Shown piece by piece: positions 989 to 62,732 of a stretch of 64,000 bases of DNA. The stretch is from assembly GCF_044324875.1 (NCBI RefSeq), contig NZ_CP172185.1. One strand, given 5' to 3'. Origin of the DNA: Escherichia coli. GTDB lineage: Bacteria > Pseudomonadota > Gammaproteobacteria > Enterobacterales > Enterobacteriaceae. A program made the position numbers and the translations under genes. The notes under the pieces were generated by a model, which had not been told where the DNA came from, did not search any database, and saw only the letters and a list, made by a program, of their open reading frames with translations. How positions within the stretch are numbered: position 1 is the first letter of the stretch; each line of letters opens with the position of its first letter.

Positions 989-2101
989 TTATCCATTATT
1001 AATCACCTTATACAACGGGAGCATCGCCGCGCCGCATGACGCACTCTGTGCTCCCATCGAAGAGGCAGCTAACTTCACTCTGGGGCGGTTGGGATCGAGG
1101 CAGGCTTCCATCAGTTGATTCAGTTCCTGCACCAGACGACTGATAATCGGTTTCGGCATCGCGCCACCGAGTACGATGATTTGCGGGTCTACCCACTGCA
1201 CACAGCTGAAGAGCGTCTGCTCCACCTGGCCACGACAGCGTTCAAACCAGCTTTCCAGCAGTGGGTGCTGCCCGGCTATCAGCTCCGGTAGCTTAGTTTC
1301 ACTGAATCCTTCACGCTCCAGTGTGGCAAGCAAATCCTTATACGACGGGCGCGGTGTACCGGATGGAAACGCCATCCCGACTTCACCGGCATTGCAGAAC
1401 CCGCCGCGTAGCATTTTATTCCCGGAGATAATACCCGCGCCGATACCGTAGCCAAGGTCGATAAAGGTTAGATCGCTGTACGCATTCCATTTGCCGCTGT
1501 ACAGTTCACCTACCGCCGAGGCGTTGGCATTATTTTCCACCCACGTCGGCCACGGCAGGTTGTCGGCAAACGCCTGCTGGAGATCTACCTCACGCCAGCT
1601 CTCCAGCCACGGTACGCTGTGGCGCTTGCGACCATCCGCTTTCAGAAATCCGGGCACTGCATAGCCAATGCCGAGAATACGTGCGTGCTGGAGCTGGCGC
1701 TTTTTCAGCATTTTCTCCACCAAGGTTTTGATCTGCGCGAGAGAGGCCTCCAGTGGCTGATTCTCCTGATGTGCTTCGCAAAGCGACAGCAGCTGGCGAC
1801 CACTGAGATCGACCACCGTCATATCGATAAAACCGGGACTGAACGACAACCCGATAGCACAACCGCCGCCGGGGTTAAGGCGCAACGGCAGCGACGGCTG
1901 GCCGCGCTGCCCGGTATTGCGCTCCCCTTCCACCACCAGGCCGGAGAACATCAGCTCTCGGCACTGTTGGGTGATCGCCCCCGCCGTCAGTCCCGACAGC
2001 CGTGCCAGTTCAGCCCGCGTCACCGGGGCGTGGAGACGGATCAGTTCCAGCAGCAGGCGCTGCGAACCACGTAGTTCAAGGCGTTCAGAGTGGGCGTTCA
2101 T
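989..2101 (-). CDS. ROK-family transcriptional regulator (NagC/Mlc-like)
   Basis: 370-aa ORF, ATG at 2099-2101; N-terminal HTH (VTRAELARLSGLTAGAITQQCRELMFSGLV) followed by glycine-rich sugar-kinase-like ROK fold (GIGYAVPG, DLGYGIGAGII). Confidence 0.8.
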   Translation of the reverse strand: MNAHSERLELRGSQRLLLELIRLHAPVTRAELARLSGLTAGAITQQCRELMFSGLVVEGERNTGQRGQPSLPLRLNPGGGCAIGLSFSPGFIDMTVVDLSGRQLLSLCEAHQENQPLEASLAQIKTLVEKMLKKRQLQHARILGIGYAVPGFLKADGRKRHSVPWLESWREVDLQQAFADNLPWPTWVENNANASAVGELYSGKWNAYSDLTFIDLGYGIGAGIISGNKMLRGGFCNAGEVGMAFPSGTPRPSYKDLLATLEREGFSETKLPELIAGQHPLLESWFERCRGQVEQTLFSCVQWVDPQIIVLGGAMPKPIISRLVQELNQLMEACLDPNRPRVKLAASSMGAQSASCGAAMLPLYKVINNG

Positions 2102-2116
2102 GGTGTCCTTATTTTT

Positions 2117-2947
2117 CTAGTTCCAGCGCAGGCCTGCTTCTTCAATCAGTCCCTGCAAATACGGAATATCATCGTGGCTGAGCATATCAATCAGCCCCGC
2201 CTGCATCCAGCCGATAATCACCGGACGACTGTCACAGCCGAATTTATAGTCGTACTGCTCCAGCGGCGTCATGCCGTTTTTCATTTCATGCAGATACATC
2301 CGCACGCCCAGTCCGGCATTTTTGTAGGCCCGCAGGTCGTCGATATGGGCGAACTCGAACTCAAAGCAGACGCATCCGGCATTGGACTGCTGTACCGCCG
2401 CAAGCTGGTTATTGTAGCGCTCCAGCGTCACCACCTGTAACGCCAGTTGCGGGATTTGCGCCTTCACCCGGTTGATCAGCACATGGTTGAAGCCCAGCAA
2501 CTGGATATGGCCGAGGGCATCCAGATGCTCATGCAGCAGTGCGACCAGCGCCGCCACAAACTCGTCATGGCGGTTGCGCTGTTTGACCTCAACAATCAGC
2601 CCCATGCTGTTTTCCACCGCCCAGCGCAGCACGTCCGCCAGCAAGGGGATGCGCGTTCCGGCAAACGACGGATGGTATTTCACGCCAAAGTCGCACGCCA
2701 GCAGCTGCGGGTACGTCATCTGCTCCACAAATCCGTGTCCGGTGGATACCCGGTCGATACGGTGATCGTGCGTGACCACCAGTTGGTTATCCGCCGTCAG
2801 GTGGATATCGATTTCAATACAGTGGGTTCCCGCCAGGCGGGCGGCTTCAAAGGCCGGGAATGTGTTCTCCGGCGCGCAGCTGGAATAACCTCGGTGGCTG
2901 TTGGCCAGCACGATCCCCTCTGCCGCCCGGTGAAAGTTAAACGCCAT
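2117..2947 (-). CDS. Glycerophosphodiester phosphodiesterase family protein
   Basis: 276-aa ORF; GDPD hallmarks HRG...ENT (LANSHRGYSSCAPENT) and E-x-D-x-H (IEIDIHLTADNQLVVTHD); 15 bp upstream of the ROK gene on the same strand. Confidence 0.8.
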   Translation of the reverse strand: MAFNFHRAAEGIVLANSHRGYSSCAPENTFPAFEAARLAGTHCIEIDIHLTADNQLVVTHDHRIDRVSTGHGFVEQMTYPQLLACDFGVKYHPSFAGTRIPLLADVLRWAVENSMGLIVEVKQRNRHDEFVAALVALLHEHLDALGHIQLLGFNHVLINRVKAQIPQLALQVVTLERYNNQLAAVQQSNAGCVCFEFEFAHIDDLRAYKNAGLGVRMYLHEMKNGMTPLEQYDYKFGCDSRPVIIGWMQAGLIDMLSHDDIPYLQGLIEEAGLRWN

Positions 2948-3162
2948 CTTCTTTTCCTCTCGAATGTAAGATGGTAATTAACTTTACTACTTAAATTTAA
3001 ATGTGAAAGATGTTTTTGTTATTTTATGGTTAATCCATTGTTTTATATGCTTTTAATTTGATATTTAGATCATTTTTTAGCTTTAAGGATCTGTGTCACA
3101 TAAATTTAATGTTTAGTATGTAAATTTAATAATCATCTTTTTAACCGATAGAAGAGAGACTC

Positions 3163-4230
3163 ATGTCAAAACTGGTTCTGGAACAGGTGACCAAAACCTT
3201 CGGCGAATTCTATGCCGCCAGGGAAATCTCGTTCTGCGCCGAAGAGGGGGAGTTCGTGACCCTGCTTGGGCCGAGCGGCTGCGGTAAAACCACCCTGCTG
3301 AAAATGATCGGCGGTTTTCACCAGCCGGACAGCGGACGCATTCTGATTGGCGATAAAACGGTCAACGCCCTGCCGCCAGAAAAGCGCAATACCGCCATGT
3401 GTTTCCAGTCCTATGCGCTGTTTCCGCACCTCAACGTGGCACACAACATCTGCTTCGGCCTGAAGCAGAAAAAAGTCGCTATCAGTGAACAGCAGGCCCG
3501 GCTGGCGGAGGCGCTGAAGCAGGTGGGGCTGGAGAGCCAGCGCCTGAAAATGCCCGCCCAGCTCTCCGGCGGCCAGCAGCAGCGCGTGGCGCTGGCGCGG
3601 GCGATGATCACCCGCCCGGACGTGATCCTGTTCGACGAACCGCTCTCCAACCTTGATGCCAAGCTGCGCGAAAGCGTGCGTTTTGAAATCAAGGAACTCC
3701 AGCGGCAGTATCAGCTCACCTCGATCTACGTCACACACGACCAGGCGGAAGCGCTGGCGATGTCGGATAAAATTGTGGTGCTGAACGCCGGTAATGTTGA
3801 GCAAATAGGCAAACCGGAAGAGATTTACTACCGTCCGGCCAACCGCTTTGTGGCCGACTTTATCGGCGCGGCCAATATCGACACCGCGCAGGTCACGCCC
3901 TCAGAGCAGCCGGGCTATTACCGGGTACGCTGTGCCCTCGGCGAGTTTTATGTGCATTCCGTACAGCCGCCACGCACAGAGCACTGCTATATCTGCTGGC
4001 GACCGGAAGATGCGCAGTATGTCAGCCAGCCTCAGGCAGGCAACAACCACTTCTCCCTGACGCTCGACAAAATGGCCTTTATGGGCAACCTCACCGAAGC
4101 CTGGGGCCACAACGACAGCGGGTTATCGGTCCGCTTACATCTAATTAAAAAGCCGCCCGTCGCCCCCGGCGAGAGTGCCTGCTTCCGTCTGGCGGAAAAC
4201 GCCATCCATTTTCTGGAGCCGGTATCATGA
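3163..4230 (+). CDS. ABC transporter ATP-binding protein (PotA/MalK/UgpC-like)
   Basis: Walker [10 protein letters not shown], signature [14 protein letters not shown], Walker [13 protein letters not shown]-terminal regulatory-type domain; ATG 3163; stop overlaps next start (ATGA at 4227). Confidence 0.9.
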
Positions 4231-5093
4231 AAAACTGGCGCAATGATGCGGTCGCCTGGCTGCTGATGCTCAGCGGGCTGGGCACGATCCTACTACTGAT
4301 GGGATCGACGTTTTATGTGGTGATCGTCCAGAGCCTGGGCTGGTTCAACATCGAAGGCGACAGCAATTTCTCGCTGGAATACTGGCGCAATATGTTGCAG
4401 GACGAAGTGTTGCAAAGCGCCCTGTTCTACTCAGTGAAAGTGTCACTGCTGGGGTCGTTCGGCTCGGTGATTTTCGCCTATCCGCTGGCGCTGTGGCTGC
4501 GTAAACCGATGGCCTATAAAGAGGGCATTATCGCGGTGCTGCGTGCGCCGATGTTTATCCCCGGTCTGGTGGCGGCGTTTCTGTTCGTCAATATCGTCGC
4601 TTATCACGGCATTATCAACGAACTGCTGCTGGCGCTGGGGATTATCAGCGAGCCGCTGCGGATGCAGAACGATGACTTCGGCTGGGGCGTGGTTATCCTG
4701 CAAATCTGGAAAAACCTGCCCTTCGCCCTGATCCTCGTCGGCGGCGCAGTCAACGCCATCCGTAACGACGTGCTGGACGCCGCCAGCAATCTCGGTGCCA
4801 GCCGCTGGCGCAGTTTTACCGGCGTGGTGGTGCCGCTGACGCTGCCCGCCGTGCAGGTGACGCTGATTCTGGTATTTATCGGCGCGCTGGGCGACTTCGC
4901 CTTCTTCTCGGTGGCCGGGCCACGCAACACCTACTCGCTGGCGCGGCTGATGCAGGCCACCGCCATGGAGTACGGCGAGTGGAATAACGCGGCGGTGATT
5001 GCGGTGATCATTATGGTCACGGCGGCCATCTGCACGTTGCTGATTGCCACACTGATTACCCCGTTCGCCACCCGCAAAGGAGAGGTCAAATGA
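4227..5093 (+). CDS. ABC transporter permease subunit 1
   Basis: 288-aa hydrophobic multi-TM protein translationally coupled to the ATPase; stop overlaps start of the next permease. Confidence 0.85.
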   Translation: MKNWRNDAVAWLLMLSGLGTILLLMGSTFYVVIVQSLGWFNIEGDSNFSLEYWRNMLQDEVLQSALFYSVKVSLLGSFGSVIFAYPLALWLRKPMAYKEGIIAVLRAPMFIPGLVAAFLFVNIVAYHGIINELLLALGIISEPLRMQNDDFGWGVVILQIWKNLPFALILVGGAVNAIRNDVLDAASNLGASRWRSFTGVVVPLTLPAVQVTLILVFIGALGDFAFFSVAGPRNTYSLARLMQATAMEYGEWNNAAVIAVIIMVTAAICTLLIATLITPFATRKGEVK

Positions 5094-5146
5094 GCCACAC
5101 TGATTACCCCGTTCGCCACCCGCAAAGGAGAGGTCAAATGAGCCAC
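5051..5146. repeat. Perfect 48-bp tandem duplication (2 copies) spanning the permease1 stop / permease2 start
   Basis: actgattaccccgttcgccacccgcaaaggagaggtcaaatgagccac occurs at 5051-5098 and again at 5099-5146; read directly. Confidence 0.9.
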
Positions 5147-5974
5147 ACTGCCAACGGTTGCCGGGTGGTGACGATTTCGCTGATCTTCTTCGTGGTCGCT
5201 AATCTGATCTGGCTGGGCATGCCGTTCGGCATGGCGATCCTCTGGTCGCTGGTTGACCCGGCCCATCCGTGGAGCTACCCGGATATCTTCCCGCCCGTGC
5301 TGTCGTTCAGCCGCTGGCTGCTGGTATGGGAAAAGACTTCGCTTTCCGAGGCGCTGTTCAACAGCTACACCATTGCGCCTGCGGTAGCGGTCGCCAGCCT
5401 GCTGCTGTCGCTACCCACCGCGTATGCCTTCGGGCGCATGACCTTTCGCGGTAAGGCGGTGGCGGAGATGCTGACGCTGATCCCGCTGGTGATGCCGGGG
5501 ATGCTGATCGGGATTTTTTTCAGCGCCATGCTGATCAACCTCAATATCGACAACGCGTTTATCAGCATTGTTATCGGCCATACGGTACTGACGCTGCCCT
5601 ATTCGATCCGCATTATGTCTGCGGGGTTTAAGTCGGTGCCGCAGGATCTGATCGACGCCAGCCGCGACCTGGGCTCCGGCGCGTGGGACACCTTCTGCAA
5701 TGCCTATCTGCCGCTGCTGAAACCGAGCTTCCTGGCGGCGCTGATTTTTTGTCTGGTGCGAAGCCTGGAAGAGTTCAGCATCTCATACGTGCTGGGCGCG
5801 CCGGACTTTATCACCGTTCCGACCATTCTTTACTCTTTCCTTGGCTACTCCTTCGTCCGCCCGGATGCGGCGGTGGTGTCGATGATTCTGGTGATCCCCA
5901 ATGTCATCCTGATGGTCATCATTGAGAAGTTGCTGAAGGGGAACTATCTGTCGCAATCCACGGGAAAAGCCTGA
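5090..5974 (+). CDS. ABC transporter permease subunit 2 (N-terminus affected by 48-bp duplication; alternative start 5138)
   Basis: 294-aa hydrophobic ORF; first ATG at 5090 lies in duplication copy 1 and adds 16 residues (MSHTDYPVRHPQRRGQ) before the second MSHT at 5138. Confidence 0.8.
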   Translation: MSHTDYPVRHPQRRGQMSHTANGCRVVTISLIFFVVANLIWLGMPFGMAILWSLVDPAHPWSYPDIFPPVLSFSRWLLVWEKTSLSEALFNSYTIAPAVAVASLLLSLPTAYAFGRMTFRGKAVAEMLTLIPLVMPGMLIGIFFSAMLINLNIDNAFISIVIGHTVLTLPYSIRIMSAGFKSVPQDLIDASRDLGSGAWDTFCNAYLPLLKPSFLAALIFCLVRSLEEFSISYVLGAPDFITVPTILYSFLGYSFVRPDAAVVSMILVIPNVILMVIIEKLLKGNYLSQSTGKA

Positions 5975-5995
5975 CCTTTTACAGGAGATAATGTG

Positions 5996-7072
5996 ATGAA
6001 AAAAACAGTGATGATTCTGGCGGGCGGCCTGCTGTGCAGCTCGCTGGCAACGGCGGCGGATAGCCCCGACCTGATTGCCCAAGCGAAAAAAGAGGGCAGC
6101 GTGACCTTTAACGTCTGGTACTTACAGCCGCAGTGGCGCAGCTTTGTGAAGGATTTTGAGCAGCAGTACGGTGTTAAGGTGCGCATCCCGGAAGGGAATA
6201 TCGACGGAAACGTGAACAAGTTGCTGGCAGAAGCGGGGAAAAAAAAAGGTAAAATAGATGTTATCGCCTTGTCTGTTGCGCAACTGCCAGTGGCAATGGG
6301 AGCGAAAGCGCTGGCGAAGGTGGACGATTTGCCGGGCTATGGCGACGCCATTCACCAGATTCAGAACGTTGACACCCAGGGTTATGCCGTGGCGTTCTGG
6401 GGCAACCAGACCGGATTTGCTTACGACCCGCAGCAGATGGGTGACCGGGCGCTGCCACAAACGCTGGAGCAGTTGCAGAGCTTTATCGACGCCAACCCGA
6501 AAAAGTTCGGCTATAACGACCCGAACAACGGCGGCGCTGGGGAAGCCTTTATCCAGCGCATCGTCACTACTCAGGGCGACACGTTTAACAGCGAAGCGGA
6601 GAGCGTTGACCCGGCAGTGGTGAAAAACTGGCAGAAAGGCTGGCAGTGGTTTGCCGCTAATAAGGACAAAATTACCCGCACGGCCTCCGGTGCTGATAGT
6701 CTGACACGCCTGAATGACGGCGAGCTGATGCTGACACCATCCTGGGAAGATCATCTTGTCGGACTACAAAAAACCGGGGCTATCAATTCGCGGCTGAAAT
6801 TTTACGTACCGGAGTTTGGCATGCCTGGCGGCGGTAACATCGCTGCCATTGCCGCCAACAGCCCACATCCGGCGGCATCACGCTTATTCCTCAACTGGCT
6901 GATTCAGCCTGAAACGCAACATGCACTGAGTAAAGTCTTCGGCTCCACGCCGATGAACAAACAGCTCCGTCCGGATCTGAATGAGATCCCGGAGCCCACG
7001 GTGGAGTTTTATGGCAAAGCGTACAGTACACAGCTCAAAAAAGATTTCGTTCGTGAGGTCATGATGCAGTAA
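5996..7072 (+). CDS. ABC transporter periplasmic substrate-binding protein (family-1 SBP)
   Basis: Signal peptide MKKTVMILAGGLLCSSLATAADS; about 358 aa; last gene of ATPase-permease-permease-SBP operon; track start 5993 is GTG, ATG at 5996. Confidence 0.85.
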   Translation: MKKTVMILAGGLLCSSLATAADSPDLIAQAKKEGSVTFNVWYLQPQWRSFVKDFEQQYGVKVRIPEGNIDGNVNKLLAEAGKKKGKIDVIALSVAQLPVAMGAKALAKVDDLPGYGDAIHQIQNVDTQGYAVAFWGNQTGFAYDPQQMGDRALPQTLEQLQSFIDANPKKFGYNDPNNGGAGEAFIQRIVTTQGDTFNSEAESVDPAVVKNWQKGWQWFAANKDKITRTASGADSLTRLNDGELMLTPSWEDHLVGLQKTGAINSRLKFYVPEFGMPGGGNIAAIAANSPHPAASRLFLNWLIQPETQHALSKVFGSTPMNKQLRPDLNEIPEPTVEFYGKAYSTQLKKDFVREVMMQ

Positions 7073-7167
7073 GCTTCATTTCGCGCACAGCCATCCCCCT
7101 GAAATCTGGCTGACTGTTATTTCGCAACAGTTATTGAGTAAATCTTTAACCTGTTAACAGAGGGTTT

Positions 7168-7692
7168 ATGAAACGTAAACTTATTGCCTTTGTGATTCTG
7201 GCTACATCATCCTGTGGATATGCAGCCACCAAAGATGTAACAATGAATCTTGTTGATAGTGACGGAAAAGAGCGAAATATTGGTAAAATAACCATCCAGA
7301 AGACACCCTACGGGCTGCTGTTCACCCCTGATCTTCACTCCTTACCCGCCGGCATTCATGGTTTTCATGTACATGAAAACGCAAGTTGTGCTCCTGCCCT
7401 GAAAGATGGAAAAACTGTCGCTGCTTTATCTGCAGGTGGTCACTTTGACCCGGAAAAAACAGGGAAGCATCTCGGTCCATGGTCTCCTGATGGCCACCTG
7501 GGTGATCTCCCTGCGCTTTATGTCACTCATGACGGAAAAGCAACCTACCCGGTGCTTGCGCCAAGACTATCTGAATTAAAGGAGCTCGATGGCCGTTCGC
7601 TAATGCTCCACGCAGGAGGTGATAATCATGATGACCATCCTGAACCTCTAGGTGGCGGTGGTGCAAGAATTGCCTGTGGTATCATCCCATAA
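7168..7692 (+). CDS. sodC: Periplasmic Cu,Zn superoxide dismutase (SodC-family paralog, diverged from the K-12-type SodC as I recall it)
   Basis: Signal peptide plus Cu/Zn-SOD motifs [34 protein letters not shown] 7168. Confidence 0.85.
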
Positions 7693-8045: not shown

Positions 8046-8400
8046 ATTCGATACCTCAATGCTTACAACAGAAAAGTATACTTTTACGAAGTTCGCCTTT
8101 GCAGGAGTATATAAAGTTATCACTGGATGCAAGAGCCGGAAATCATGTATATCAGGATCAACTTTGTAATTCAATAACATATTATCCAGTGAAAAAGTAA
8201 GTATATTTAAGCTGGGGAAGGAGAAGGGGGACTTGATTTGATATTTTCATCAATAATATTATTTTTCCTCCTCCATTATTCATTCAGACCTGGTTCCGGG
8301 CGTAATTCCTAGACTGGCCCCCTGAATCTCCAGACAACCAGTATCACTTAAATAAGTGATAGTCTTAATACTAGTTTTTAGACTAGTCATTGGAGAACAG

Positions 8401-8766
8401 ATGATTGATGTCTTAGGGCCGGAGAAACGCAGACGGCGTACCACACAGGAAAAGATCGCAATTGTTCAGCAGAGCTTTGAACCGGGGATGACGGTCTCCC
8501 TCGTTGCCCGGCAACATGGTGTAGCAGCCAGCCAGTTATTTCTCTGGCGTAAGCAATACCAGGAAGGAAGTCTTACTGCTGTCGCCGCCGGAGAACAGGT
8601 TGTTCCTGCCTCTGAACTTGCTGCCGCCATGAAGCAGATTAAAGAACTCCAGCGCCTGCTCGGCAAGAAAACGATGGAAAATGAACTCCTCAAAGAAGCC
8701 GTTGAATATGGACGGGCAAAAAAGTGGATAGCGCACGCGCCCTTATTGCCCGGGGATGGGGAGTAA
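8401..8766 (+). CDS. insC: IS2 transposase OrfA (InsC)
   Basis: [56 protein letters not shown]; 121 aa. Confidence 0.9.
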
Positions 8767-9629
8767 GCTTAGTCAGCCGTTGTCTCCGGGTGTCGCGTGC
8801 GCAGTTGCACGTCATTCTCAGACGAACCGATGACTGGATGGATGGCCGCCGCAGTCGTCACACTGATGATACGGATGTGCTTCTCCGTATACACCATGTT
8901 ATCGGAGAGCTGCCAACGTATGGTTATCGTCGGGTATGGGCGCTGCTTCGCAGACAGGCAGAACTTGATGGTATGCCTGCGATCAATGCCAAACGTGTTT
9001 ACCGGATCATGCGCCAGAATGCGCTGTTGCTTGAGCGAAAACCTGCTGTACCGCCATCGAAACGGGCACATACAGGCAGAGTGGCTGTGAAAGAAAGTAA
9101 TCAGCGATGGTGCTCTGACGGGTTCGAGTTCCGCTGTGATAACGGAGAAAAACTGCGAGTCACGTTCGCGCTGGACTGCTGTGACCGTGAGGCACTGCAC
9201 TGGGCGGTCACTACGGGCGGCTTCAACAGTGAAACAGTACAGGACGTCATGCTGGGAGCGGTGGAACGCCGCTTCGGCAACGAGCTTCCGGCGTCTCCAG
9301 TAGAGTGGCTGACGGATAATGGTTCATGCTACCGGGCTAATGAAACACGGCAGTTTGCCCGGATGTTGGGGCTTGAACCGAAGAGCACGGCGGTGCGGAG
9401 TCCGGAGAGTAACGGCATAGCAGAGAGCTTCGTGAAAACGATAAAGCGTGACTACATCAGTGTCATGCCCAAACCAGACGGGTTAACGGCAGCAAAGAAC
9501 CTTGCAGAGGCGTTCGAGCATTATAACGAATGGCATCCGCATAGTGCACTGGGTTATCGCTCGCCACGGGAATATCTACGGCAGCAAGCCAGTAATGGGT
9601 TAAGTGATAACAGGTGTCTGGAAATATAG
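8724..9629 (+). CDS. insD: IS2 transposase OrfB (InsD), DDE catalytic domain
   Basis: 301-aa ORF overlapping insC; WCSDGFEF...HWAVTTGG...WLTDNGSCY...HSALGYRSP. Confidence 0.9.
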
Positions 9630-10149
9630 GGGCAAATCCAATTCCGATTTCTCTGTTGAAGCGATGCATTTATATTTAAATATTCACCTGTCATTGAATT
9701 TTATTTGAAATAGGAGAAAATCTCCTCCTGTACTACAGATAACCCGGAATGTTCCTCGAAAGAAAATTCTGGCGCAGAATTCACGCCCGGTTCTGTTCAA
9801 CATCATGCAGGATAACGATACCGAAACGTTAAACTCTGGCAATTCTCGTGTTATACACAGGCAGGAGTGATTACTACGGTAAGAATTGCTGAAAAGGGGA
9901 GAACACTGAAGGCCTTATTCGCGAAGAATAAAGGAGACATTTCATGTAAATTATTATCAGAGATAACCTTCTCCAGGCGCTTTTGTTCGCTTCCTGAATT
10001 GCTACCTGATACATATTTACGGGATGCCAGCCTGGTGACTATAACTCCGAAAAGACCGATTATTGTATTGCGTGCATCCGGCATGTTTACAATGTACGCT
10101 GGTATCTAACGGAGTCTGACACAGATGCACGCAGGTGTATATTTTAACG

Positions 10150-35152: not shown

Positions 35153-36191
35153 GATGAGAGATCTCCGTTGATTTGGATTGACTTCACATCATTAATCACC
35201 GCAGTAAAACTTTACGGCGTCCTGTCATTAAGCAACACCAGTGGCTCCTGATTAGAACAGAATGAGTTTCCCACGAACAAAAAGACAAACCTACACGCAG
35301 GGTAAAAACACGCAACAACAGCATGAATGGATTTGAAAACAATATGGATGACGAAAAATGTCAAAAGTGAAACGGATCAACAGAACGTGCAAACAAAACG
35401 TCAGAAACGCAATCAGAGCACTTTCTGGCGCTGTGAATCAACAACAACACCAAAACCTACAGCTTAACCACATTACTCAATCACGAATGCGAATGACACG
35501 TTTAAAACCTGTTTACAGATAACGCCGTAACACGATCATCCCCATCACCATCAGAATCGATTTTCTCATCCCGAAAATGTTACGTTTCACTACGCACCAT
35601 AAAAACGATTAACCATCGATAACGTAAATCTCATCTGAATCAAAAAACCAAAACCAATCATCACACTTTCGCAATGCAAGAAGAAAAACCACATCATGAC
35701 GAAAACAATGACCTTACATGAAAAAGCAAAACGTCAGGAATCGTTAATGCCTCAATCTGATTGTTATCAAAACATCCAGAAAGTCGTTTAACAGAATCGT
35801 CGTAAGCACATCGAAAAGAACGTCAGATCACCTCAGGAAAGTTCGGGTTGATTTAGCGTAAAGATACTTTTCTCAGCTTAACGTCGAAACACAAACCAAA
35901 AACCACAAACAACCAAAGCTCAGGAAAGGTTAAACGTCACATCAGTAAAATCGAATAGCAGATTGATTGCTTAAACAGAAAGGTTTTACAGCAGCTTTAA
36001 ACTGATTTTAGCTAACGTAAAGATTTACTAAACTGGATGAGTTTCAGACAAAGCAATGTGTACAGCAATGCTTAATGAAAACACTTATAGGGCTGTTTAT
36101 GAAAACACGTGTATGTCTGGTAAAACACTTAGTAGAAAATACGTGTATAACACTTACTGAAATGCTTAGTAAAAATACTTAGTAAAATATG
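35153..36191. other. About 1 kb ORF-free, strongly A/C-skewed tract with short recurring motifs
   Basis: No track ORF of 60 aa or more on any frame; motifs aacgtcag (4 or more) and acgtaaa; dense acacttag/acacttac/tacttag plus acgtgtat repeats at 36100-36190 continuing after the IS2. Confidence 0.5.
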
Positions 36192-36282
36192 TAGACTGGC
36201 CCCCTGAATCTCCAGACAACCAGTATCACTTAAATAAGTGATAGTCTTAATACTAGTTTTTAGACTAGTCATTGGAGAACAG

Positions 36283-36648
36283 ATGATTGATGTCTTAGGG
36301 CCGGAGAAACGCAGACGGCGTACCACACAGGAAAAGATCGCAATTGTTCAGCAGAGCTTTGAACCGGGGATGACGGTCTCCCTCGTTGCCCGGCAACATG
36401 GTGTAGCAGCCAGCCAGTTATTTCTCTGGCGTAAGCAATACCAGGAAGGAAGTCTTACTGCTGTCGCCGCCGGAGAACAGGTTGTTCCTGCCTCTGAACT
36501 TGCTGCCGCCATGAAGCAGATTAAAGAACTCCAGCGCCTGCTCGGCAAGAAAACGATGGAAAATGAACTCCTCAAAGAAGCCGTTGAATATGGACGGGCA
36601 AAAAAGTGGATAGCGCACGCGCCCTTATTGCCCGGGGATGGGGAGTAA
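36283..36648 (+). CDS. insC: IS2 transposase OrfA (InsC)
   Basis: Identical translation to 8401-8766. Confidence 0.9.
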
Positions 36649-37511
36649 GCTTAGTCAGCCGTTGTCTCCGGGTGTCGCGTGCGCAGTTGCACGTCATTCT
36701 CAGACGAACCGATGACTGGATGGATGGCCGCCGCAGTCGTCACACTGATGATACGGATGTGCTTCTCCGTATACACCATGTTATCGGAGAGCTGCCAACG
36801 TATGGTTATCGTCGGGTATGGGCGCTGCTTCGCAGACAGGCAGAACTTGATGGTATGCCTGCGATCAATGCCAAACGTGTTTACCGGATCATGCGCCAGA
36901 ATGCGCTGTTGCTTGAGCGAAAACCTGCTGTACCGCCATCGAAACGGGCACATACAGGCAGAGTGGCTGTGAAAGAAAGTAATCAGCGATGGTGCTCTGA
37001 CGGGTTCGAGTTCCGCTGTGATAACGGAGAAAAACTGCGAGTCACGTTCGCGCTGGACTGCTGTGACCGTGAGGCACTGCACTGGGCGGTCACTACGGGC
37101 GGCTTCAACAGTGAAACAGTACAGGACGTCATGCTGGGAGCGGTGGAACGCCGCTTCGGCAACGAGCTTCCGGCGTCTCCAGTAGAGTGGCTGACGGATA
37201 ATGGTTCATGCTACCGGGCTAATGAAACACGGCAGTTTGCCCGGATGTTGGGGCTTGAACCGAAGAGCACGGCGGTGCGGAGTCCGGAGAGTAACGGCAT
37301 AGCAGAGAGCTTCGTGAAAACGATAAAGCGTGACTACATCAGTGTCATGCCCAAACCAGACGGGTTAACGGCAGCAAAGAACCTTGCAGAGGCGTTCGAG
37401 CATTATAACGAATGGCATCCGCATAGTGCACTGGGTTATCGCTCGCCACGGGAATATCTACGGCAGCAAGCCAGTAATGGGTTAAGTGATAACAGGTGTC
37501 TGGAAATATAG
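36606..37511 (+). CDS. insD: IS2 transposase OrfB (InsD)
   Basis: Identical translation to 8724-9629. Confidence 0.9.
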
Positions 37512-38227
37512 GGGCAAATCCAATATGTGTAGAATTATCTATTTAAAAAGATATGTATATAACACTTAATAAAAACATGTGTATATAGTATCATACCGAC
37601 ATTCTCAACATCTTCAGACTTCCATACATACTGGGTGTTGATTTCTCACTTTTACAGCCAGCATGGAGTTTTCTGTCCTAAAAACAGAGCAGATTTACTC
37701 TGGAATTATTTTTCTGCCCCCGTATTTCAGGCCCCAGAAAAGACAATCCGAAGCAAACCGTTTGTCAGCCTCCATATCATCTTTTACCCCCGGAAAGTGA
37801 TCGCGTTTTACAACCAGAATGACAGCCATACTGATTATGTCGTCTCCCGGCCCCCTTCACATATAACATGCATGTCTGTCATTGCTTACTGCTCCACATG
37901 ACCGGATTTCACATACAGGATGCACATTCAGTGTTTTTATCGCCACTATAACAGACAGATTACTGTCGTCTTTACTCTTCAGATTGTTAATCTGACCACA
38001 AGAACAGCCGAACGGCAAAACGCCCTCCACAAGGGGCACATGAACCATAGTTGATAGCATGTTTTTCCTAATCAAGGAATAGTTCAGGAATATTTTATTG
38101 CATTAATAACTGGCGAATAATCGTTCTGTGAACACAAAATGCTTTTATTTGTAAATTTTATTGCATTGCACTCGTTTTATTGATATGGGGTTTAATAACA
38201 GATAACCCGGAAAGAAGGAGAAAACAG

Positions 38228-39019: not shown

Positions 39020-40002
39020 CTTTCACTACTTCCACTCCTGGCAGTTTTCCTCTTTTTGTAGTGTCTCCCGGCTGCAGGCATCAGGTACTTTTCCGTCATT
39101 TCGTTGCAGAACTCTTCAATGTAGTTAATCAGCTTCTGGTGTGCTTTCACCTTTTCTTCCCCGGGGGACGCTTTCAGATAAATGTCCTCCTTTTCCACAA
39201 GTGTATTTATAAACTCTCCCGGACATCCCTGGTTATAAAGCAACGTGAAAAACAACACATTCCCCAGTCTCTCCAGTAACTGCGATTTAACCCTGTATTG
39301 TTGTTTGCTGAGGATTGATTGTTTTATAAAGCTTAGTCTTGTTAAAAGTTGTTCAAATCCCGGTTCCAGTTTAAAAACAGATTTTAATACCAGGGACTGA
39401 TACTCCTGATAAAAAAGTTCAAACGTCGGGGATGCAGACTGACGAACAGATTTGGCTACAACCCATGGACTAAATCCCATGATTGGGATTTCCTTCGCTC
39501 CCTCCAGCGCACTCAGAGGTAGTCCAGCAATCCATGCGTCCAGCTTAGCCGAATCAATATCCCCGCTCAAAACCTCATACAAACTGCCCGTGAACGGTTG
39601 AGTCGGTTTTTTTGTTGTTTTACCTTCTGATTGCCTGAATCCATCCACTTTTCTCCGGATATTACGCGGAATCAGCATAAAAGGCGGGACATTAAGTGAT
39701 AAACGTTTACCCGTCATACGATACCAGTGGCCCACCTCAACCTTAATCCGTGTATCTGGCCTTGTATCTGGCCTTGTATCTGGCCTTAGCTCAAGTGCTA
39801 TTATGTTAAGCAGGTACAGATAACGCACCGTATAACAGTCAAAATGTTTCTCCGGATCAAACGGCTCTGATCGTTCTCTGCACACAAGTCCGCTGCGCTT
39901 CAGTATTCGCTGGGTATCTTTCCAGGCCTTACTCTGAAGAATGGTGGTAACTCTGGCTTTATTAGCAATCTCACGCAGCGCATCACTTTGTTGTGCCGTC
40001 AT
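39016..40002 (-). CDS. AT-rich orphan protein with RPDT x3 repeat (function unknown)
   Basis: 328 aa from ATG 40000-40002 (track start 40017 is GTG) with GGAGGG SD; convergent with and overlapping the preceding gene by 4 bp. Confidence 0.5.
   Translation of the reverse strand: MTAQQSDALREIANKARVTTILQSKAWKDTQRILKRSGLVCRERSEPFDPEKHFDCYTVRYLYLLNIIALELRPDTRPDTRPDTRIKVEVGHWYRMTGKRLSLNVPPFMLIPRNIRRKVDGFRQSEGKTTKKPTQPFTGSLYEVLSGDIDSAKLDAWIAGLPLSALEGAKEIPIMGFSPWVVAKSVRQSASPTFELFYQEYQSLVLKSVFKLEPGFEQLLTRLSFIKQSILSKQQYRVKSQLLERLGNVLFFTLLYNQGCPGEFINTLVEKEDIYLKASPGEEKVKAHQKLINYIEEFCNEMTEKYLMPAAGRHYKKRKTARSGSSES
39751..39786 (-). repeat. 12-bp tandem repeat x3 inside the coding sequence (encodes RPDT-RPDT-RPDT)
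   Basis: tgtatctggcct at 39751, 39763, 39775. Confidence 0.85.
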
Positions 40003-40108
40003 CTCTTCCCTCCACACTTTGTCACTCCAGATTTTTTCACGTCCATATTACCTGAATGATAAACCGGATTAGTGTGATCCGGTTCAGCGAAATCAACAGG
40101 ATACCGGT

Positions 40109-40993
40109 ATGTCATTCAGCCATTCTTCCCTCTCTGCACAAGTGAAATCATATCTGACGTTTCTTCCTGAAGAAATTCGCCAGAAAATCCTTGAACATCT
40201 CCACGGTGTTATTCATTACGAGCCCGTGATTGGCATTATGGGTAAATCCGGCACAGGCAAAAGCAGCCTGTGTAATGCCATTTTTCAGTCCCATATCTGC
40301 GCCACGCATCCCCTGAACGGCTGCACCCGCCAGGCTCATCACCTCACCCTGCAGATCGGTGAACGCAGAATGACGCTGGTCGATCTGCCCGGCATTGGTG
40401 AGACACCGCAGCATGATCAGGAATACCGGGCACTTTATCATCAGTTGCTACCGGAACTGGATCTGATTATCTGGATCCTGCGGGCTGATGAACGTGCGTA
40501 TGCTGCCGATATTGCCATGCATCAGTTTTTACTGAATGAAGATGCCGATCCCTCGCGTTTTCTGTTTGTTCTCAGCCATGCCGATCGCGTGTTTCCTGCT
40601 GAAGAATGGAACGACACAGAAAAATGCCCGTCCCGTCAGCAGGAACTCTCACTGGCGACAGTAACAGCCCGGGTGGCCACCCTGTTCCCGTCATCATTTC
40701 CGGTACTCTCCGTTGCAGCGCCTGTCGGCTGGAATCTTCAGGCACTGGTGTCACTGATGATCCACGCACTGCCACCACAGGCAACCAGCGCGGTTTATTC
40801 GCATATCCGGAATGAAAAGCGCACTGCGCAGGATCAGCAACACGCACAGCAGGCTTTTGGTGACGCCATCGGCCAGAGTTTTGACGCTGCCATTGCCCGG
40901 TTCAGCTTTCCGGCCTGGATGCTGCAGCTTCTGCGCAAAGCCCGTGATCGCATTATCCGCCTGCTGATCACACTGTGGGATCGCCTGTTCTGA
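40109..40993 (+). CDS. YeeP/YfjP-family GTP-binding protein (island-associated GTPase)
   Basis: 294 aa; P-loop GIMGKSGTGKSS, DLPGIGE; MSFSHSSLSAQVKSYLTFLPEEIRQKILEHL. Confidence 0.8.
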   Translation: MSFSHSSLSAQVKSYLTFLPEEIRQKILEHLHGVIHYEPVIGIMGKSGTGKSSLCNAIFQSHICATHPLNGCTRQAHHLTLQIGERRMTLVDLPGIGETPQHDQEYRALYHQLLPELDLIIWILRADERAYAADIAMHQFLLNEDADPSRFLFVLSHADRVFPAEEWNDTEKCPSRQQELSLATVTARVATLFPSSFPVLSVAAPVGWNLQALVSLMIHALPPQATSAVYSHIRNEKRTAQDQQHAQQAFGDAIGQSFDAAIARFSFPAWMLQLLRKARDRIIRLLITLWDRLF

Positions 40994-41178
40994 ATGTCCC
41001 CGCTTTTTGACCGGCCCCGGCGATAACCAGGAAACGCATTTCCGGTTGCGTCACCACAATGCTGAAGGGCTTCGGTAAACCCTCATTCATTTCATCCATC
41101 AGGCCGCGTCTTCTCCGTGAGACGCGGCTTTTTCATTGATTACGTCATTCAGTCTTAACCACTGATAAGGAGCAAAGT

Positions 41179-41997
41179 ATGCGATTAGCCAGTCGTTTTG
41201 GTTATGCGAACCAGATACGCCGTGACCGTCCGCTGACCCGTGAAGAGCTGATGCACCATGTGCCCGGGATTTTCGGGGAAGATAAACACACCTCCCGGAG
41301 CCGGAACTATACATACATCCCCACCATCACCGTGCTGGAAAGCCTGCAGCGGGAAGGCTTTCAGCCATTCTTCGCCTGCCAGACCCGCGTACGTGACCCG
41401 GGTCGCCGGGGGTATACCAAACACATGCTGCGTCTGCGCCGTGACGGGGAGATAAACGGACAACATGTCCCTGAAATTATTCTGCTCAACTCTCATGACG
41501 GTACCTCCAGCTACCAGATGCTGCCGGGTTACTTCAGGTTCGTCTGCCAGAACGGATGCGTCTGCGGTCAGTCTCGGGGGGAAGTGCGTGTTCCGCACCG
41601 GGGAAATGTGGTGGACAGAGTCATTGAAGGGGCTTACGAGGTGGTGGGCGTGTTTGACCGGATAGAGGAGAAGCGTGATGCCATGCAGTCGCTGGTCCTG
41701 CCGCCACCGGCACGCCAGGCGCTGGCACAGGCGGCACTGACTTACCGTTATGGTGACGAACATCAGCCCGTCACCACCGCCGACATTCTGACACCACGAC
41801 GCCGGGAGGATTACGGTAAGGACCTGTGGAGTGCTTATCAGACCATCCAGGAGAATATGCTGAAAGGCGGGATTTCCGGTCGCAGTGCAAAAGGAAAACG
41901 TATCCATACCCGGGCCATTCACAGCATTGATACCGATATAAAACTCAACCGCGCATTGTGGGTGATGGCAGAAACGCTGCTGGAGAGCATGCGCTGA
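41179..41997 (+). CDS. DUF932-family protein (YfjQ/YafZ-like)
   Basis: 272 aa; assigned by length, position after the GTPase and recollection of the family. Confidence 0.65.
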   Translation: MRLASRFGYANQIRRDRPLTREELMHHVPGIFGEDKHTSRSRNYTYIPTITVLESLQREGFQPFFACQTRVRDPGRRGYTKHMLRLRRDGEINGQHVPEIILLNSHDGTSSYQMLPGYFRFVCQNGCVCGQSRGEVRVPHRGNVVDRVIEGAYEVVGVFDRIEEKRDAMQSLVLPPPARQALAQAALTYRYGDEHQPVTTADILTPRRREDYGKDLWSAYQTIQENMLKGGISGRSAKGKRIHTRAIHSIDTDIKLNRALWVMAETLLESMR

Positions 41998-42088
41998 TGC
42001 TGTTTCCCTGAAAGTGCAGCCCTGACTCACGTCTGTACCAGTCCCCAGGCATTCTTCCATTCATTTACTTTTTATAAGGAATCATCTC

Positions 42089-42574
42089 ATGACAACCTTT
42101 TCGCATAGCTCCACCACACCTTCTGTTTCCGCAACTACTGCATCAGGGAATAACCAGTCTCAACTGGTTGCCACTCCCGTCCCTGATGAACAGCGCATCA
42201 GCTTCTGGCCGCAGCACTTTGGCCTCATTCCACAGTGGGTGACCCTGGAGCCCCGTGTCTTCGGCTGGATGGACCGTCTGTGCGAAGACTACTGCGGTGG
42301 TATCTGGAATCTGTACACCCTGAACAACGGCGGGGCATTTATGGCCCCCGAACCGGATGATGATGATGACGAAACATGGGTACTGTTCAATGCCATGAAC
42401 GGTAACCGCGCTGAAATGAGCCCGGAAGCCGCCGGCATTGCCGCCTGTCTGATGACGTACAGTCATCACGCCTGCCGTACGGAGTGTTATGCCATGACGG
42501 TTCATTATTACCGTCTGCGGGATTACGCCCTGCAGCATCCGGAATGCAGCGCCATTATGCGCATCATTGACTGA
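42089..42574 (+). CDS. Antirestriction protein (ArdB/KlcA; YfjX/YafX-like)
   Basis: 161 aa with acidic D-rich patch (PEPDDDDDETW) and GGIWNLYTLNNGGAFMAPE. Confidence 0.7.
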   Translation: MTTFSHSSTTPSVSATTASGNNQSQLVATPVPDEQRISFWPQHFGLIPQWVTLEPRVFGWMDRLCEDYCGGIWNLYTLNNGGAFMAPEPDDDDDETWVLFNAMNGNRAEMSPEAAGIAACLMTYSHHACRTECYAMTVHYYRLRDYALQHPECSAIMRIID

Positions 42575-42589
42575 AAGGGGGCCGGAACA

Positions 42590-54323: not shown

Positions 54324-55001
54324 ATGATGTACCACATTCCCGGCGTGCTATCGCCACAGGACGTCGCCCGTTTTCGCGAACAACTGGAACAAGCCGAATG
54401 GGTGGATGGACGCGTCACCACTGGCGCACAAGGTGCGCAAGTTAAGAACAATCAACAGGTAGACACCCACAGCACGTTATACGCCGCCCTGCAAAATGAG
54501 GTGCTGAACGCGGTTAACCAACATGCTTTGTTCTTTGCCGCGGCCTTGCCGCGTACCCTTTCCACGCCGCTGTTTAATCGCTATCAGAACAATGAAACCT
54601 ATGGTTTTCATGTGGATGGCGCAGTACGCAGCCATCTACAAAACGGCTGGATGCGCACTGACCTTTCTGCCACGCTGTTTTTAAGCGATCCAGAAAGCTA
54701 CGACGGCGGCGAACTGGTCGTTAATGACACCTTCGGGCAACATCGGGTAAAACTCCCGGCAGGCGATCTGGTGTTGTATCCCTCCAGCAGCTTGCATTGC
54801 GTGACACCCGTAACCCGCGGCGTACGAGTGGCATCATTTATGTGGATCCAGTCGATGATCCGTGATGATAAAAAGCGCGCCATGCTGTTTGAACTGGACA
54901 ACAATATTCAGTCGCTGAAAAGCCGCTACGGCGAAAGTGAAGAGATCCTGTCGCTGCTCAATCTTTATCATAATCTGCTGCGGGAATGGTCGGAGATCTG
55001 A
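54324..55001 (+). CDS. ybiX: PKHD-type Fe(II)/2-oxoglutarate-dependent hydroxylase YbiX
   Basis: Start taken at [17 protein letters not shown] / [10 protein letters not shown] motifs. Confidence 0.85.
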
Positions 55002-55074
55002 CGCTTGAACTGCCCGAGTTCGTCCCTATATTAGCTACACTTAACTGTACAAGTATTGATATGGGGAGGACGAT

Positions 55075-55341
55075 ATGGCATCCGGTTGGGCTAACGATGA
55101 CGCCGTCAACGAACAGATCAACAGTACAATTGAAGATGCGATTGCCCGCGCTCGGGGTGAAATTCCGCGTGGCGAAAGCCTGTATGAATGTGAAGAGTGC
55201 GGAGCCCCCATCCCGCAAGCCCGTCGGGAAGCCATTCCTGGTGTGCGCTTATGCATTCATTGTCAGCAGGAGAAAGATTTACAAAAACCAGCTTATACAG
55301 GATATAATCGCAGAGGTTCGAAAGACAGCCAGTTACGTTAA
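55075..55341 (+). CDS. ybiI: DksA/TraR-family C4-type zinc-finger protein YbiI
   Basis: 88 aa; CEECGAPIPQARREAIPGVRLCIHCQ. Confidence 0.85.
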   Translation: MASGWANDDAVNEQINSTIEDAIARARGEIPRGESLYECEECGAPIPQARREAIPGVRLCIHCQQEKDLQKPAYTGYNRRGSKDSQLR

Positions 55342-55604
55342 CTACAACTGGCGGGATGTATAGCGAGTATAATTTGTATTTTGCGTGGCATTCCGTGCCT
55401 TTAACGCTGTCGTGACTGCCACGCTGCATAAAACAAGTCCATAAGTTCAACAAATAAATGGATTATCAGTATGTTAGATATCAATCAATTTATTTGAACA
55501 AGGCGGTCAATTCTCTTCGATTTTATCTCTCGAAAAAAACGTGATACTCATCACATCGACGAAACAACGTCACTTATACAAAAATCACCTGCGAGAGATT
55601 AATT

Positions 55605-55865
55605 ATGAAAACTATCAATACTGTTGTTGCTGCTATGGCTCTTTCAACTCTGTCATTTGGCGTGTTTGCCGCGGAACCGGTAACGGCATCCCAGGCACAG
55701 AACATGAATAAAATCGGCGTGGTTTCTGCCGATGGCGCATCCACCCTCGATGCCCTGGAAGCGAAACTGGCTGAGAAAGCTGCGGCAGCTGGGGCGAGTG
55801 GATACAGCATCACTTCTGCCACCAACAACAATAAATTAAGCGGTACTGCGGTAATTTATAAGTAA
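55605..55865 (+). CDS. ybiJ: DUF1471-family periplasmic protein YbiJ
   Basis: 86 aa, signal peptide, C-terminal GTAVIYK; paralog of mcbA. Confidence 0.8.
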   Translation: MKTINTVVAAMALSTLSFGVFAAEPVTASQAQNMNKIGVVSADGASTLDALEAKLAEKAAAAGASGYSITSATNNNKLSGTAVIYK

Positions 55866-55869
55866 TTCG

Positions 55870-55990
55870 TAGGACGGATAAGGCGTTTACGCCGCATCCG
55901 GCAACAGATGCCTGATGCGACGCTACCGCGTCTTATCAGGCCTACAAAATCCGAACCGTTGAACGGATCAGGCGTTTACGCTACGTCCAG
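55870..55990. repeat. REP/BIME-type palindromic elements
   Basis: gcgtttacgccgcatccggc ... gatgcgacgctaccgcgtcttatcaggcctac ... ggatcaggcgtttacgc. Confidence 0.6.
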
Positions 55991-56093
55991 CACAAGTATT
56001 TCCCTGTCTGTTTGCCGACAGACGCGCATGCTCTAACCCTCATTGATCCTATGTTACCCTTGTTTGCCCGTCCGTCACTGGACGGGCTTTTTT

Positions 56094-57271
<1,178 letters not shown>

Positions 57272-57272
57272 T

Positions 57273-57314
<42 letters not shown>

Positions 57315-57319
57315 GAAAA

Positions 57320-58282
<963 letters not shown>

Positions 58283-58309
58283 TTACGACTCCTTACCTGA
58301 CTCACATCA

Positions 58310-60460: not shown

Positions 60461-60474
60461 GAGAAAACCTGAAA

Positions 60475-60494
60475 TACTGTATAAACAGCCAATA
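60475..60494 (-). promoter_or_regulatory. LexA (SOS) box of dinG
   Basis: Reverse complement of 60475-60494 is tattggctgtttatacagta, the non-canonical dinG SOS box as I remember it, 15 bp upstream of the start. Confidence 0.7.
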
Positions 60495-60579
60495 TTGTGG
60501 CATTTTTCGGTTTTCAGGGGTAATGGTTTTTCTGTTTCTGGAAAGCGACTCGCAATAACCACCAACATAATGCGGTTTA

Positions 60580-61062
60580 ATGCCCGTTCGAGCACAAAGG
60601 ATCCAACACGTCATGCAAGACACCACCATAAATTTCTACAGCACCGGCGATGACTACGGTGATTTTTCTAACTTTGCCGCCTGGCCCATTAAGGTTGACG
60701 GGAAAACCTGGCCCACCTCAGAACACTATTTCCAGGCACAAAAATTCCTTGATGAAAAATACCGCGAAGAGATCCGTCGGGTTTCTTCCCCTATGGTCGC
60801 CGCTCGCATGGGGCGTGATCGTTCCAAGCCACTTCGTAAAAACTGGGAGTCGGTCAAAGAACAGGTGATGCGAAAAGCGCTTCGCGCTAAATTCGAACAA
60901 CATGCAGAACTGCGTGCGCTCTTGCTGGCAACCGCGTCCGCAAAACTGGTTGAGCATACGGAAAATGATGCTTACTGGGGAGACGGTGGTAATGGTAAGG
61001 GCAAGAATCGACTGGGCTACCTTTTAATGGAGTTGCGTGAACAATTGGCTATAGAGAAGTAA
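60580..61062 (+). CDS. ybiA: NADAR-family N-glycosidase YbiA
   Basis: 160 aa; MPVRAQRIQHVMQDTTINFYS...WPTSEHYFQAQKF. Confidence 0.85.
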   Translation: MPVRAQRIQHVMQDTTINFYSTGDDYGDFSNFAAWPIKVDGKTWPTSEHYFQAQKFLDEKYREEIRRVSSPMVAARMGRDRSKPLRKNWESVKEQVMRKALRAKFEQHAELRALLLATASAKLVEHTENDAYWGDGGNGKGKNRLGYLLMELREQLAIEK

Positions 61063-61214
61063 CATCTCGGGTGACTTATGGGCGATAAAACAGAGAAATC
61101 TTTTTGCCGCGTTCTCAAATTGCTGACAAGTGCTTGTTGTGAAATGCCGGATGCGGCGCAAACTGAACTGCACCCCAAATGTTGGACATAATCTGACATC
61201 TGAAGGTGCAGTTT

Positions 61215-61736
61215 ATGAAACATTCATTTGAAGTAAAACTTGCCGCTGTAAATCACTACCTGGCCGGTCATGCAGGCATCATTTCTACGGCAAAACTCTT
61301 TCAACTTTCTCACACCAGCCTCTCACACTGGATTAATCTTTTTCTTCTTCACGGTCCTCGGGCACTGGATTGCAGACACAAGCGTAGCTATTCTCCTGAA
61401 GATAAACTTTGCGTGGTTCTTTATGCTCTCGGGCATTCTGAGTCTCTACCCCGGGTAGCTGCCCGGTTTAACATTCCCAGCCACAACACGGTTAAAAACT
61501 GGATAAAAGGCTACCGCAAATCTGGTAATGAGGCCTTTATCAGGCGCTGGAAGGAGAAAAGCATGACCCGTTCTGATGATACCCATGAAAACGAGGCAAA
61601 CATGACGCCGGAAGAGATGAAGAATGAGCTGCGTTATCTTCGCGCAGAAAATGCATATCTGAAAGCCATGCAGGAGCATCTCCTGGAAAAAAAGCGCCAG
61701 GAGCTGGAGAAAAAACGAAAGTCATCCGGAGCCTGA
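61215..61736 (+). CDS. IS150-like transposase OrfA
   Basis: MKHSFEVKLAAVNHYLAGHAG..., two HTH repeats, C-terminal leucine zipper; poly-A slippery run near 61688. Confidence 0.8.
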   Translation: MKHSFEVKLAAVNHYLAGHAGIISTAKLFQLSHTSLSHWINLFLLHGPRALDCRHKRSYSPEDKLCVVLYALGHSESLPRVAARFNIPSHNTVKNWIKGYRKSGNEAFIRRWKEKSMTRSDDTHENEANMTPEEMKNELRYLRAENAYLKAMQEHLLEKKRQELEKKRKSSGA

Positions 61737-61840
61737 GGTGCGGACACTGCCAGTCTGACCTGTTAAAGGCTGCAGGGCTGGCCAGAAGCACGCTGTACTA
61801 CCAGCTGTCACTGCAGAAGGCTAAGGACAAGTATGCTGAT

Positions 61841-62595
<755 letters not shown>

Positions 62596-62730: not shown

Positions 62731-62732
62731 GA

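Follow-up and report, generated by a model that had tools for sequence, protein, structure and literature searches.

Short direct repeats promote both duplication and deletion by slipped-strand mispairing, in the account of Levinson & Gutman (1987) as far as it is relayed in PMC6054270. The spacings of microhomologies in coding DNA are skewed to multiples of three (PMC6054270), so a repeat unit that keeps the reading frame is in itself unremarkable. On measured gain and loss rates for such repeats, only general statements were found in the literature (PMC6054270).

The locus described here lies in a window of 64,000 nucleotides of Escherichia coli DNA (the whole stretch that was analyzed), in which a 48-bp sequence stands twice across the junction of two ABC permease genes. 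Like the products of slipped-strand or template-switch replication, it is a head-to-tail exact copy of native sequence, a 9-bp repeat bounds the unduplicated unit, and relatives have apparently reverted to exactly one copy. It differs from that class by position alone, the unit spanning an ATGA stop/start overlap and doubling a ribosome-binding site (RBS) and a start. With the VNTR or minisatellite loci of enterobacteria that serve in MLVA typing it shares a coding tandem unit of tens of base pairs, a multiple of 3, and a varying copy number, here 1 and 2 copies within one SNP haplotype; unlike those loci, it shows only 1- or 2-copy states, and its polymorphism is limited to one haplotype. Phase-variable contingency loci likewise change repeat number reversibly at a translation start, but here the unit is 16 codons long, both open reading frames (ORFs) are open in both states, and there is neither on/off logic nor a long array.

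In E. coli, infB (IF2 forms) and clpB are each translated from two in-frame starts into a long and a short isoform. The present locus is similar in having two in-frame ATGs, each with a Shine-Dalgarno (SD) sequence, and predicted products that would differ only by an N-terminal extension; it is dissimilar in that its initiation regions are literal copies that arose by duplication and its isoforms are predicted only. The host operon resembles type I importers of the PotABCD kind, with an ATPase, two BPD_transp_1 permeases and a periplasmic solute-binding protein (SBP), but its second permease falls far under the cut-off for PotC (81.7 bits in the equivalog model NF007047, for which NCBIfam sets 326). 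The duplication is real and inherited but ordinary: it belongs to a known type of mutation and introduces no new mechanism or system.

The array and its host operon

The duplication is hosted by a four-gene operon for an ABC importer, with two divergent genes on one side and sodC on the other.

3163..7072, + strand: four-gene ABC importer operon hosting the duplication
3163-4230, + strand: operon ATPase gene
4227..5093, + strand: permease 1 (ABC transporter, 288 aa, BPD_transp_1, PotB-like); its TGA at 5091-5093 lies in copy 1, and the protein is unaltered by the duplication
5090..5974, + strand: permease 2 in its long form (294 aa), read from ATG1; the native short form (278 aa) runs from 5138; BPD_transp_1, PotC-like
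5993-7072, + strand: SBP gene
7168-7692, 3' of the operon: sodC
2117-2947, divergent to the operon: glycerophosphodiester phosphodiesterase
989-2101, divergent to the operon: ROK regulator

Pfam hits on the called genes assign the PF00528 domain to the permeases, in an operon with an ABC ATPase and an SBP, and NCBIfam scans agree. The nearest solved permease to permease 2 is E. coli PotC (8y5f chain C), with E = 1.3e-14 over residues 76-289; the structure-database comparison also returned similarity to ModB and SugB. No part of the transporter came near the NCBIfam equivalog cut-offs, whether for PotABC, PhnT or similar families, and the importer is therefore not an orthologue of the spermidine/putrescine transporter. 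The neighboring glycerophosphodiester phosphodiesterase and ROK regulator suggest a substrate other than that of PotABCD. The two permease genes overlap as ATGA, which putatively couples their translation.

Tandem Repeats Finder reported one array in this region and no other, at 5046-5150, with a period of 48, 2.2 copies, 100% matches and no indels. By direct string comparison, 5046-5093 equals 5094-5141, contiguous head to tail with no intervening or foreign sequence between the copies, and 9 further bases match at 5142-5150; the match ends at 5045 and at 5151, i.e., at both edges of the array. Both analyses bear out the preliminary description, which had placed a perfect 48-bp in-frame tandem duplication at 5051-5146. 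That register (5051-5098 = 5099-5146) is also exact because any register within the 105-bp array works. Chance cannot account for a perfect match of 57 bases at one constant offset.

The 48-bp unit, GCCACACTGATTACCCCGTTCGCCACCCGCAAAGGAGAGGTCAAATGA, contains the last 15 codons and the stop of permease 1, an SD sequence, and ATGA, the opening tetranucleotide of permease 2.

5046..5093, + strand: copy 1 of the 48-bp unit; it encodes the final 15 residues of permease 1, contains its TGA, and also holds an SD sequence and ATG1 (5090), which overlaps the stop as ATGA
5094..5141, + strand: copy 2, identical to copy 1, with the second SD sequence and ATG2 (5138), the native permease 2 start according to PGAP in carrier genomes
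5142..5150, + strand: 9-bp microhomology GCCACACTG, third occurrence after 5046-5054 and 5094-5102; single-copy alleles have two, one at each end of the unit, with an offset of 48 bp

In the 64-kb window this 9-mer occurs four times, three of them inside the array, against 0.64 occurrences expected. Its placement is the same in single-copy E. coli alleles, whose junction reads ATT-GCCACACTG-ATTACC…AAATGA-GCCACACTG-CCAACGG, so that the 9-mer bounds the unit exactly; it stands there twice at a distance of 48 bp and three times in the array of the window.

Start sites of permease 2

Permease 1 keeps its C terminus, …I-A-T-L-I-T-P-F-A-T-R-K-G-E-V-K-stop, which ends at the TGA of copy 1 (5091-5093). 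ATG1 (5090) overlaps this stop, as the sole permease 2 ATG of single-copy alleles does (ATGA), and ATG2 (5138) lies 45 nt beyond it. The 48-bp unit is 16 codons long and so places ATG1 in frame; the permease 2 reading frame is uninterrupted from either ATG, and permease 1 is unchanged. A start at ATG1 would add 16 residues, MSHTDYPVRHPQRRGQ. The preliminary description had proposed two in-frame starts 48 bp apart, each with its own RBS, the first adding 16 residues to the N terminus of permease 2, and the sequence and ORF layout (294 versus 278 aa) agree with it on both counts.

The two sites look equivalent by sequence. The SD sequence AAGGAGAGG stands 4 nt 5' of each ATG, and the context is identical over 44 nt upstream and 13 nt downstream.

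5077..5085, + strand: SD sequence AAGGAGAGG for ATG1 (5090); predicted anti-SD pairing, -8.7 kcal/mol
5125..5133, + strand: duplicate SD sequence AAGGAGAGG for ATG2 (5138); predicted anti-SD pairing, -8.7 kcal/mol

Predicted mRNA accessibility was tried as a means of picking one start and was dropped, the differences being ≤1 kcal/mol and their sign varying with the window of calculation.

Predicted opening energy, -20..+13: ATG1 8.45, ATG2 7.70, native single-copy site 9.20 kcal/mol
Predicted opening energy, -15..+10: ATG1 6.14, ATG2 6.36, native single-copy site 6.09 kcal/mol
Predicted opening energy, -12..+3: ATG1 2.94, ATG2 3.67, native single-copy site 2.60 kcal/mol

Annotations are split: PGAP begins permease 2 at ATG2 (278 aa), and other gene callers begin it at ATG1 (294 aa), a disagreement that swells protein-cluster diversity. 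By its position, ATG1 would retain the native termination-reinitiation geometry and ATG2 the coding context of the native start; ribosomes that begin at ATG1 would traverse the second site. Initiation at either ATG would yield a mix of 294-aa and 278-aa permease 2.

The 16-residue extension contains three Arg, has a net charge of +2 and a mean hydropathy of -1.9, and precedes the first transmembrane helix (TM1), which begins at about native residue 9-10 of permease 2. Type I importer permeases of the PotC/MalG/ModB class have a cytoplasmic N terminus. The hydrophilic, net-positive tail of the long form is probably cytoplasmic too; given this class, it agrees with the positive-inside rule and probably does no harm. 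The transporter is probably little affected, which would make the duplication near neutral. Its persistence is probably explained by the span of the unit over the ATGA stop/start overlap, which damages neither gene.

Distribution, origin, and history of the duplication

A comparison with orthologous loci, proposed in the preliminary description, was run. A megablast search with 4700-5500 found the locus in 23 of 5,426 complete E. coli genomes. The duplication, recognized by an 801-bp span, is present in three of them: strain 135 (chicken feces, Guangdong), Br_112_kylling (Brazil) and ECCNB12-2 (chicken, Zhejiang). The other 20 have a single copy (753-bp span). None of these three is the genome of the window, to which the insertion sequence (IS) at 8310-9640 is private, and their chromosomal context differs, the island lying ~1.95 Mb from fiu-dinG in ECCNB12-2 and ~30 kb from it in the window and in Br_112. 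By an exact-sequence look-up, at least 43 contigs in NCBI and ENA encode the 294-aa long form; 9 further assemblies were fetched by way of this protein, and all carry two copies (9/9). A look-up of the 278-aa Cys8 allele added 4 new duplicated assemblies besides L001 and L003 (loci are numbered with the prefix L), in which the short form had been chosen by the gene caller. Duplicated assemblies include many short-read drafts, long-read drafts and finished chromosomes. The outgroup loci of Salmonella enterica diarizonae and Klebsiella pneumoniae are single copy, with the ATGA overlap.

A 30-mer specific to the duplication junction had no match in a scan of JGI metagenome contigs. No three-copy allele occurs among the fetched loci, and the exact 310-aa protein that it would encode is absent from a collection of 15 billion proteins. 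The junction sequence, …AAATGAGCCACACTGATTACC…, could act as a simple lineage marker. The duplication occurs in a poultry-associated E. coli lineage, on an accessory ABC-importer island whose association is mostly with poultry.

All isolate carriers have a single divergent haplotype in common. Four duplicated sequences were compared first with all 20 single-copy complete genomes, and in an alignment of ~7.3 kb, 14 fixed differences, on both sides of the array, separate the two groups.

4140, 4455, 5159, 5218, 5596, 5635, 5717, 5719, 5777, 6246, 6247, 6538, 6655, 6751: the 14 fixed differences of the SNP alignment
5159..5159, + strand: T (C in the common haplotype), giving Arg8Cys of native permease 2; the first fixed SNP downstream, 9 bp past the array

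In a first SNP table all fixed differences lay downstream, and the array was considered as the edge of an imported segment; the differences at 4140 and 4455 rule this out. Arg8Cys is fixed on the duplication-bearing haplotype, including its single-copy members, and removes one of two positive charges before TM1.

The four duplicated sequences compared first are 1-11 SNPs apart over ~7.3 kb, and the haplotype falls into sub-haplotypes A (the window, L001, L002, L024, L027, L029 and L031), B (L003, L025, L026, L028, L030, L036 and L042) and C (L038 and L041), all of these being duplicated; L032 is a recombinant. About 46 of the ~50 sampled contigs of the duplicated haplotype carry two copies. 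Single-copy members identical to duplicated ones at flanking SNPs are found in A (L037), B (L035) and C (L040, which has a private SNP within the 48-bp unit). Another single-copy Cys8 locus, L039, is A-like inside the operon and differs downstream. From the SNP divergence of the carriers and the three sub-haplotypes it follows that the duplication predates the diversification of the haplotype. At ~0.15% carrier divergence, ~0.1 substitutions are expected in 96 bp, so that two identical copies give little information on the date of the event.

We consider the array a genuine tandem duplication, inherited and near neutral, that arose by misalignment at the 9-bp repeats and was gained once and later lost in some lineages (probability, roughly 0.8). 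In the ancestral single-copy allele, GCCACACTG would have stood near the 3' end of the permease 1 gene and again over codons 2-4 of permease 2. In the outgroups the upstream 9-mer is imperfect (GCCACGCTG in Salmonella diarizonae and GCCCTGCTT in K. pneumoniae), which, with their single copy, indicates that the perfect microhomology is specific to E. coli alleles and that the single copy is ancestral. Misalignment between the two repeats, through slipped-strand or template-switch replication, would then have produced the 48-bp duplication. With copy 2, permease 2 retains its native RBS, start codon and ORF, and copy 1 adds an identical RBS and an in-frame ATG 16 codons upstream; the permease 1 ORF is preserved exactly because the unit spans the ATGA overlap. 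The duplicated allele has been handed down as its haplotype split into at least three sub-haplotypes, with probable precise losses on the way, presumably by recombination or slippage across 57 bp of perfect tandem homology.

The best reading of this history is one gain on the divergent haplotype followed by at least three precise losses. Work by Bzymek and Lovett from 2001 is said to have found that in E. coli deletion between longer perfect tandem repeats is far commoner than duplication via 9-bp homology, and one gain with several losses would fit such an asymmetry (57 bp versus 9 bp of homology). In some single-copy members the assembler may have collapsed the repeat, and these would then be no revertants. 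A frameshift in the SBP gene common to L027 (duplicated) and L037 (single copy) was considered as a synapomorphy of reversion and rejected, as the poly-A run in which it lies varies independently (-1, -2, +1). For measurements of how often short tandem duplications are gained and lost, the locus would be a well-suited natural system.

The count of gains and losses rests on parsimony and assumed rates, and three or more independent gains on the haplotype are conceivable, if improbable. In such a scheme the 9-bp microhomology would be a mutational hotspot, A, B and C would have been duplicated separately, and their single-copy members would be ancestral. Duplicated and single-copy members with identical flanks in three sub-haplotypes speak for it, as does an extended Arg8-type protein (P0016) on four ENA metagenome scaffolds, where the duplication stands beside Arg8-type SNPs. 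We nevertheless judge it unlikely. The common Arg8 haplotype does not differ from the duplicated one in unit or 9-mer, yet all 20 of its complete genomes and all 29 further contigs sampled from it are single copy; two-copy forms are the large majority inside each sub-haplotype; and loss via 57 bp of perfect homology should, by what is reported, be far easier than gain via 9 bp. The SNP strings of the four scaffolds flip repeatedly between the two haplotypes, differently in each scaffold, and we interpret these mosaics, which are typical of mixed-strain consensus, as just that; they could alternatively reflect recombination or a second origin. A second origin on the Arg8 haplotype was set aside, P0016 being found on these four metagenome scaffolds only and their SNP strings alternating.

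It is less probable again that the duplication is adaptive, either because the second RBS and ATG, now 45 nt 3' of the permease 1 stop, would decouple permease 2 translation or raise it, or because the Arg-rich tail would offset Arg8Cys. Two copies are the majority state of the haplotype, which would also fit weak positive selection; Arg8Cys is fixed on this haplotype 9 bp from the array; and the extension brings three Arg and a net charge of +2. Against this, the single-copy Cys8 strains L035, L037, L039 and L040 show that the duplication is dispensable, and frameshifts in the ATPase and SBP genes together with an IS-truncated permease 1 in several genomes point to weak selection on the transporter. 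Such decay speaks against a strongly selected fine control of operon expression in E. coli. More doubtful still is a slow, reversible tuning switch of the transporter between the 1- and 2-copy states. In this reading the duplicated junction would supply an uncoupled second site of ribosome entry or a positively charged tail that offsets the linked Arg8Cys, selection would maintain two copies as the majority state of the haplotype in poultry-associated E. coli, and precise reversion would occur now and then.

The preliminary description had read perfect identity as the sign of either a very young duplication or a faulty assembly, and neither alternative held. A recent mutation private to the strain of the window would account for the zero mismatches between copies, but this identity is uninformative at ~0.1 expected substitutions, and the duplication is common to strains from China, Brazil and elsewhere that are up to 11 SNPs per ~7.3 kb apart, fall into three sub-haplotypes and differ in chromosomal context, which leaves this origin very little weight. 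That an assembler wrote a single-copy junction twice, for which the perfect identity of the copies is the one point in favor, is hardly credible: ~20 distinct fetched sequences from varied projects, platforms and countries, among them many drafts and three independent finished chromosomes, have the same structure, the 105-bp array is shorter than a typical read and hence spanned directly, and it co-segregates with a specific SNP haplotype, as would not be expected of an artefact. A perfect short tandem duplication thus need be neither artefactual nor recent; here it is a lineage mark for one haplotype of an importer island that occurs mostly in chicken-associated E. coli.

The surrounding island

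The island of ROK regulator, glycerophosphodiester phosphodiesterase, ABC importer and sodC (window 989-7692) is rare, with 23 occurrences in 5,426 complete E. coli genomes. Its carriers (L001-L023) come mostly from chickens, chicken meat or wild birds on several continents, with few from humans. Upstream of the ROK regulator, a YebF-family gene (window ~541-894, - strand) is annotated in nearly all carriers as a pseudogene interrupted by a stop codon. Near-identical operons are present in Salmonella enterica diarizonae (L046 and L047) and K. pneumoniae (L048), where the SBP gene is followed 3' by TraI_2/integrase or DUF2857 genes and not by sodC; these flanks suggest that the operon is carried on or beside an integrative element.

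Two assemblies contain both operon haplotypes at separate sites of one chromosome (L036 and L051 on JAPXAZ010000005.1; L028 and L057 on CDDKEQ010000001.1). In both, one site is duplicated and the other has the common single-copy allele, which is IS truncated in one assembly. Such assemblies give plausible scope for gene conversion between operon copies, and strain mixtures are likewise plausible.

The operon is decayed in L005, L011 and L014 (strains 104, CM2 and EC17CM2), in L010 and L023, in L013, and in L008 and L012. The forms of decay are a permease 1 gene cut by an IS3 element and moved beside thymidylate synthase, XRE and MazG-like genes; loss of 1 nt from the ATPase gene (at about window 3629 and 3268); and SBP frameshifts (~6768). 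A poly-A run in the SBP gene (window ~6239-6248) varies in length, by -1 in L027, L041 and L042, -2 in L037, and +1 in L036, and this is the source of "frameshifted" or split SBP genes. The variation may be real slippage or homopolymer error of long-read assemblies.

Further along the window, a 1,331-bp IS3-family element occupies 8310-9640 (ORFs 8356-8766 and 8724-9629), a position at which no compared locus has it; from its size and ORF lengths we take it to be IS2-like. A related copy lies at 36191-37522, and an IS of ECCNB12-2 is ~96.7% identical to both. The segment from 40000 to 46455 (~6.5 kb) is covered in few genomes only and is therefore considered variable; it lowers joined identities to 95-96%. 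The distal core region (fiu, ybiO, dinG and rhlE; window 46456-64000) is ~98.5% identical to many E. coli genomes.
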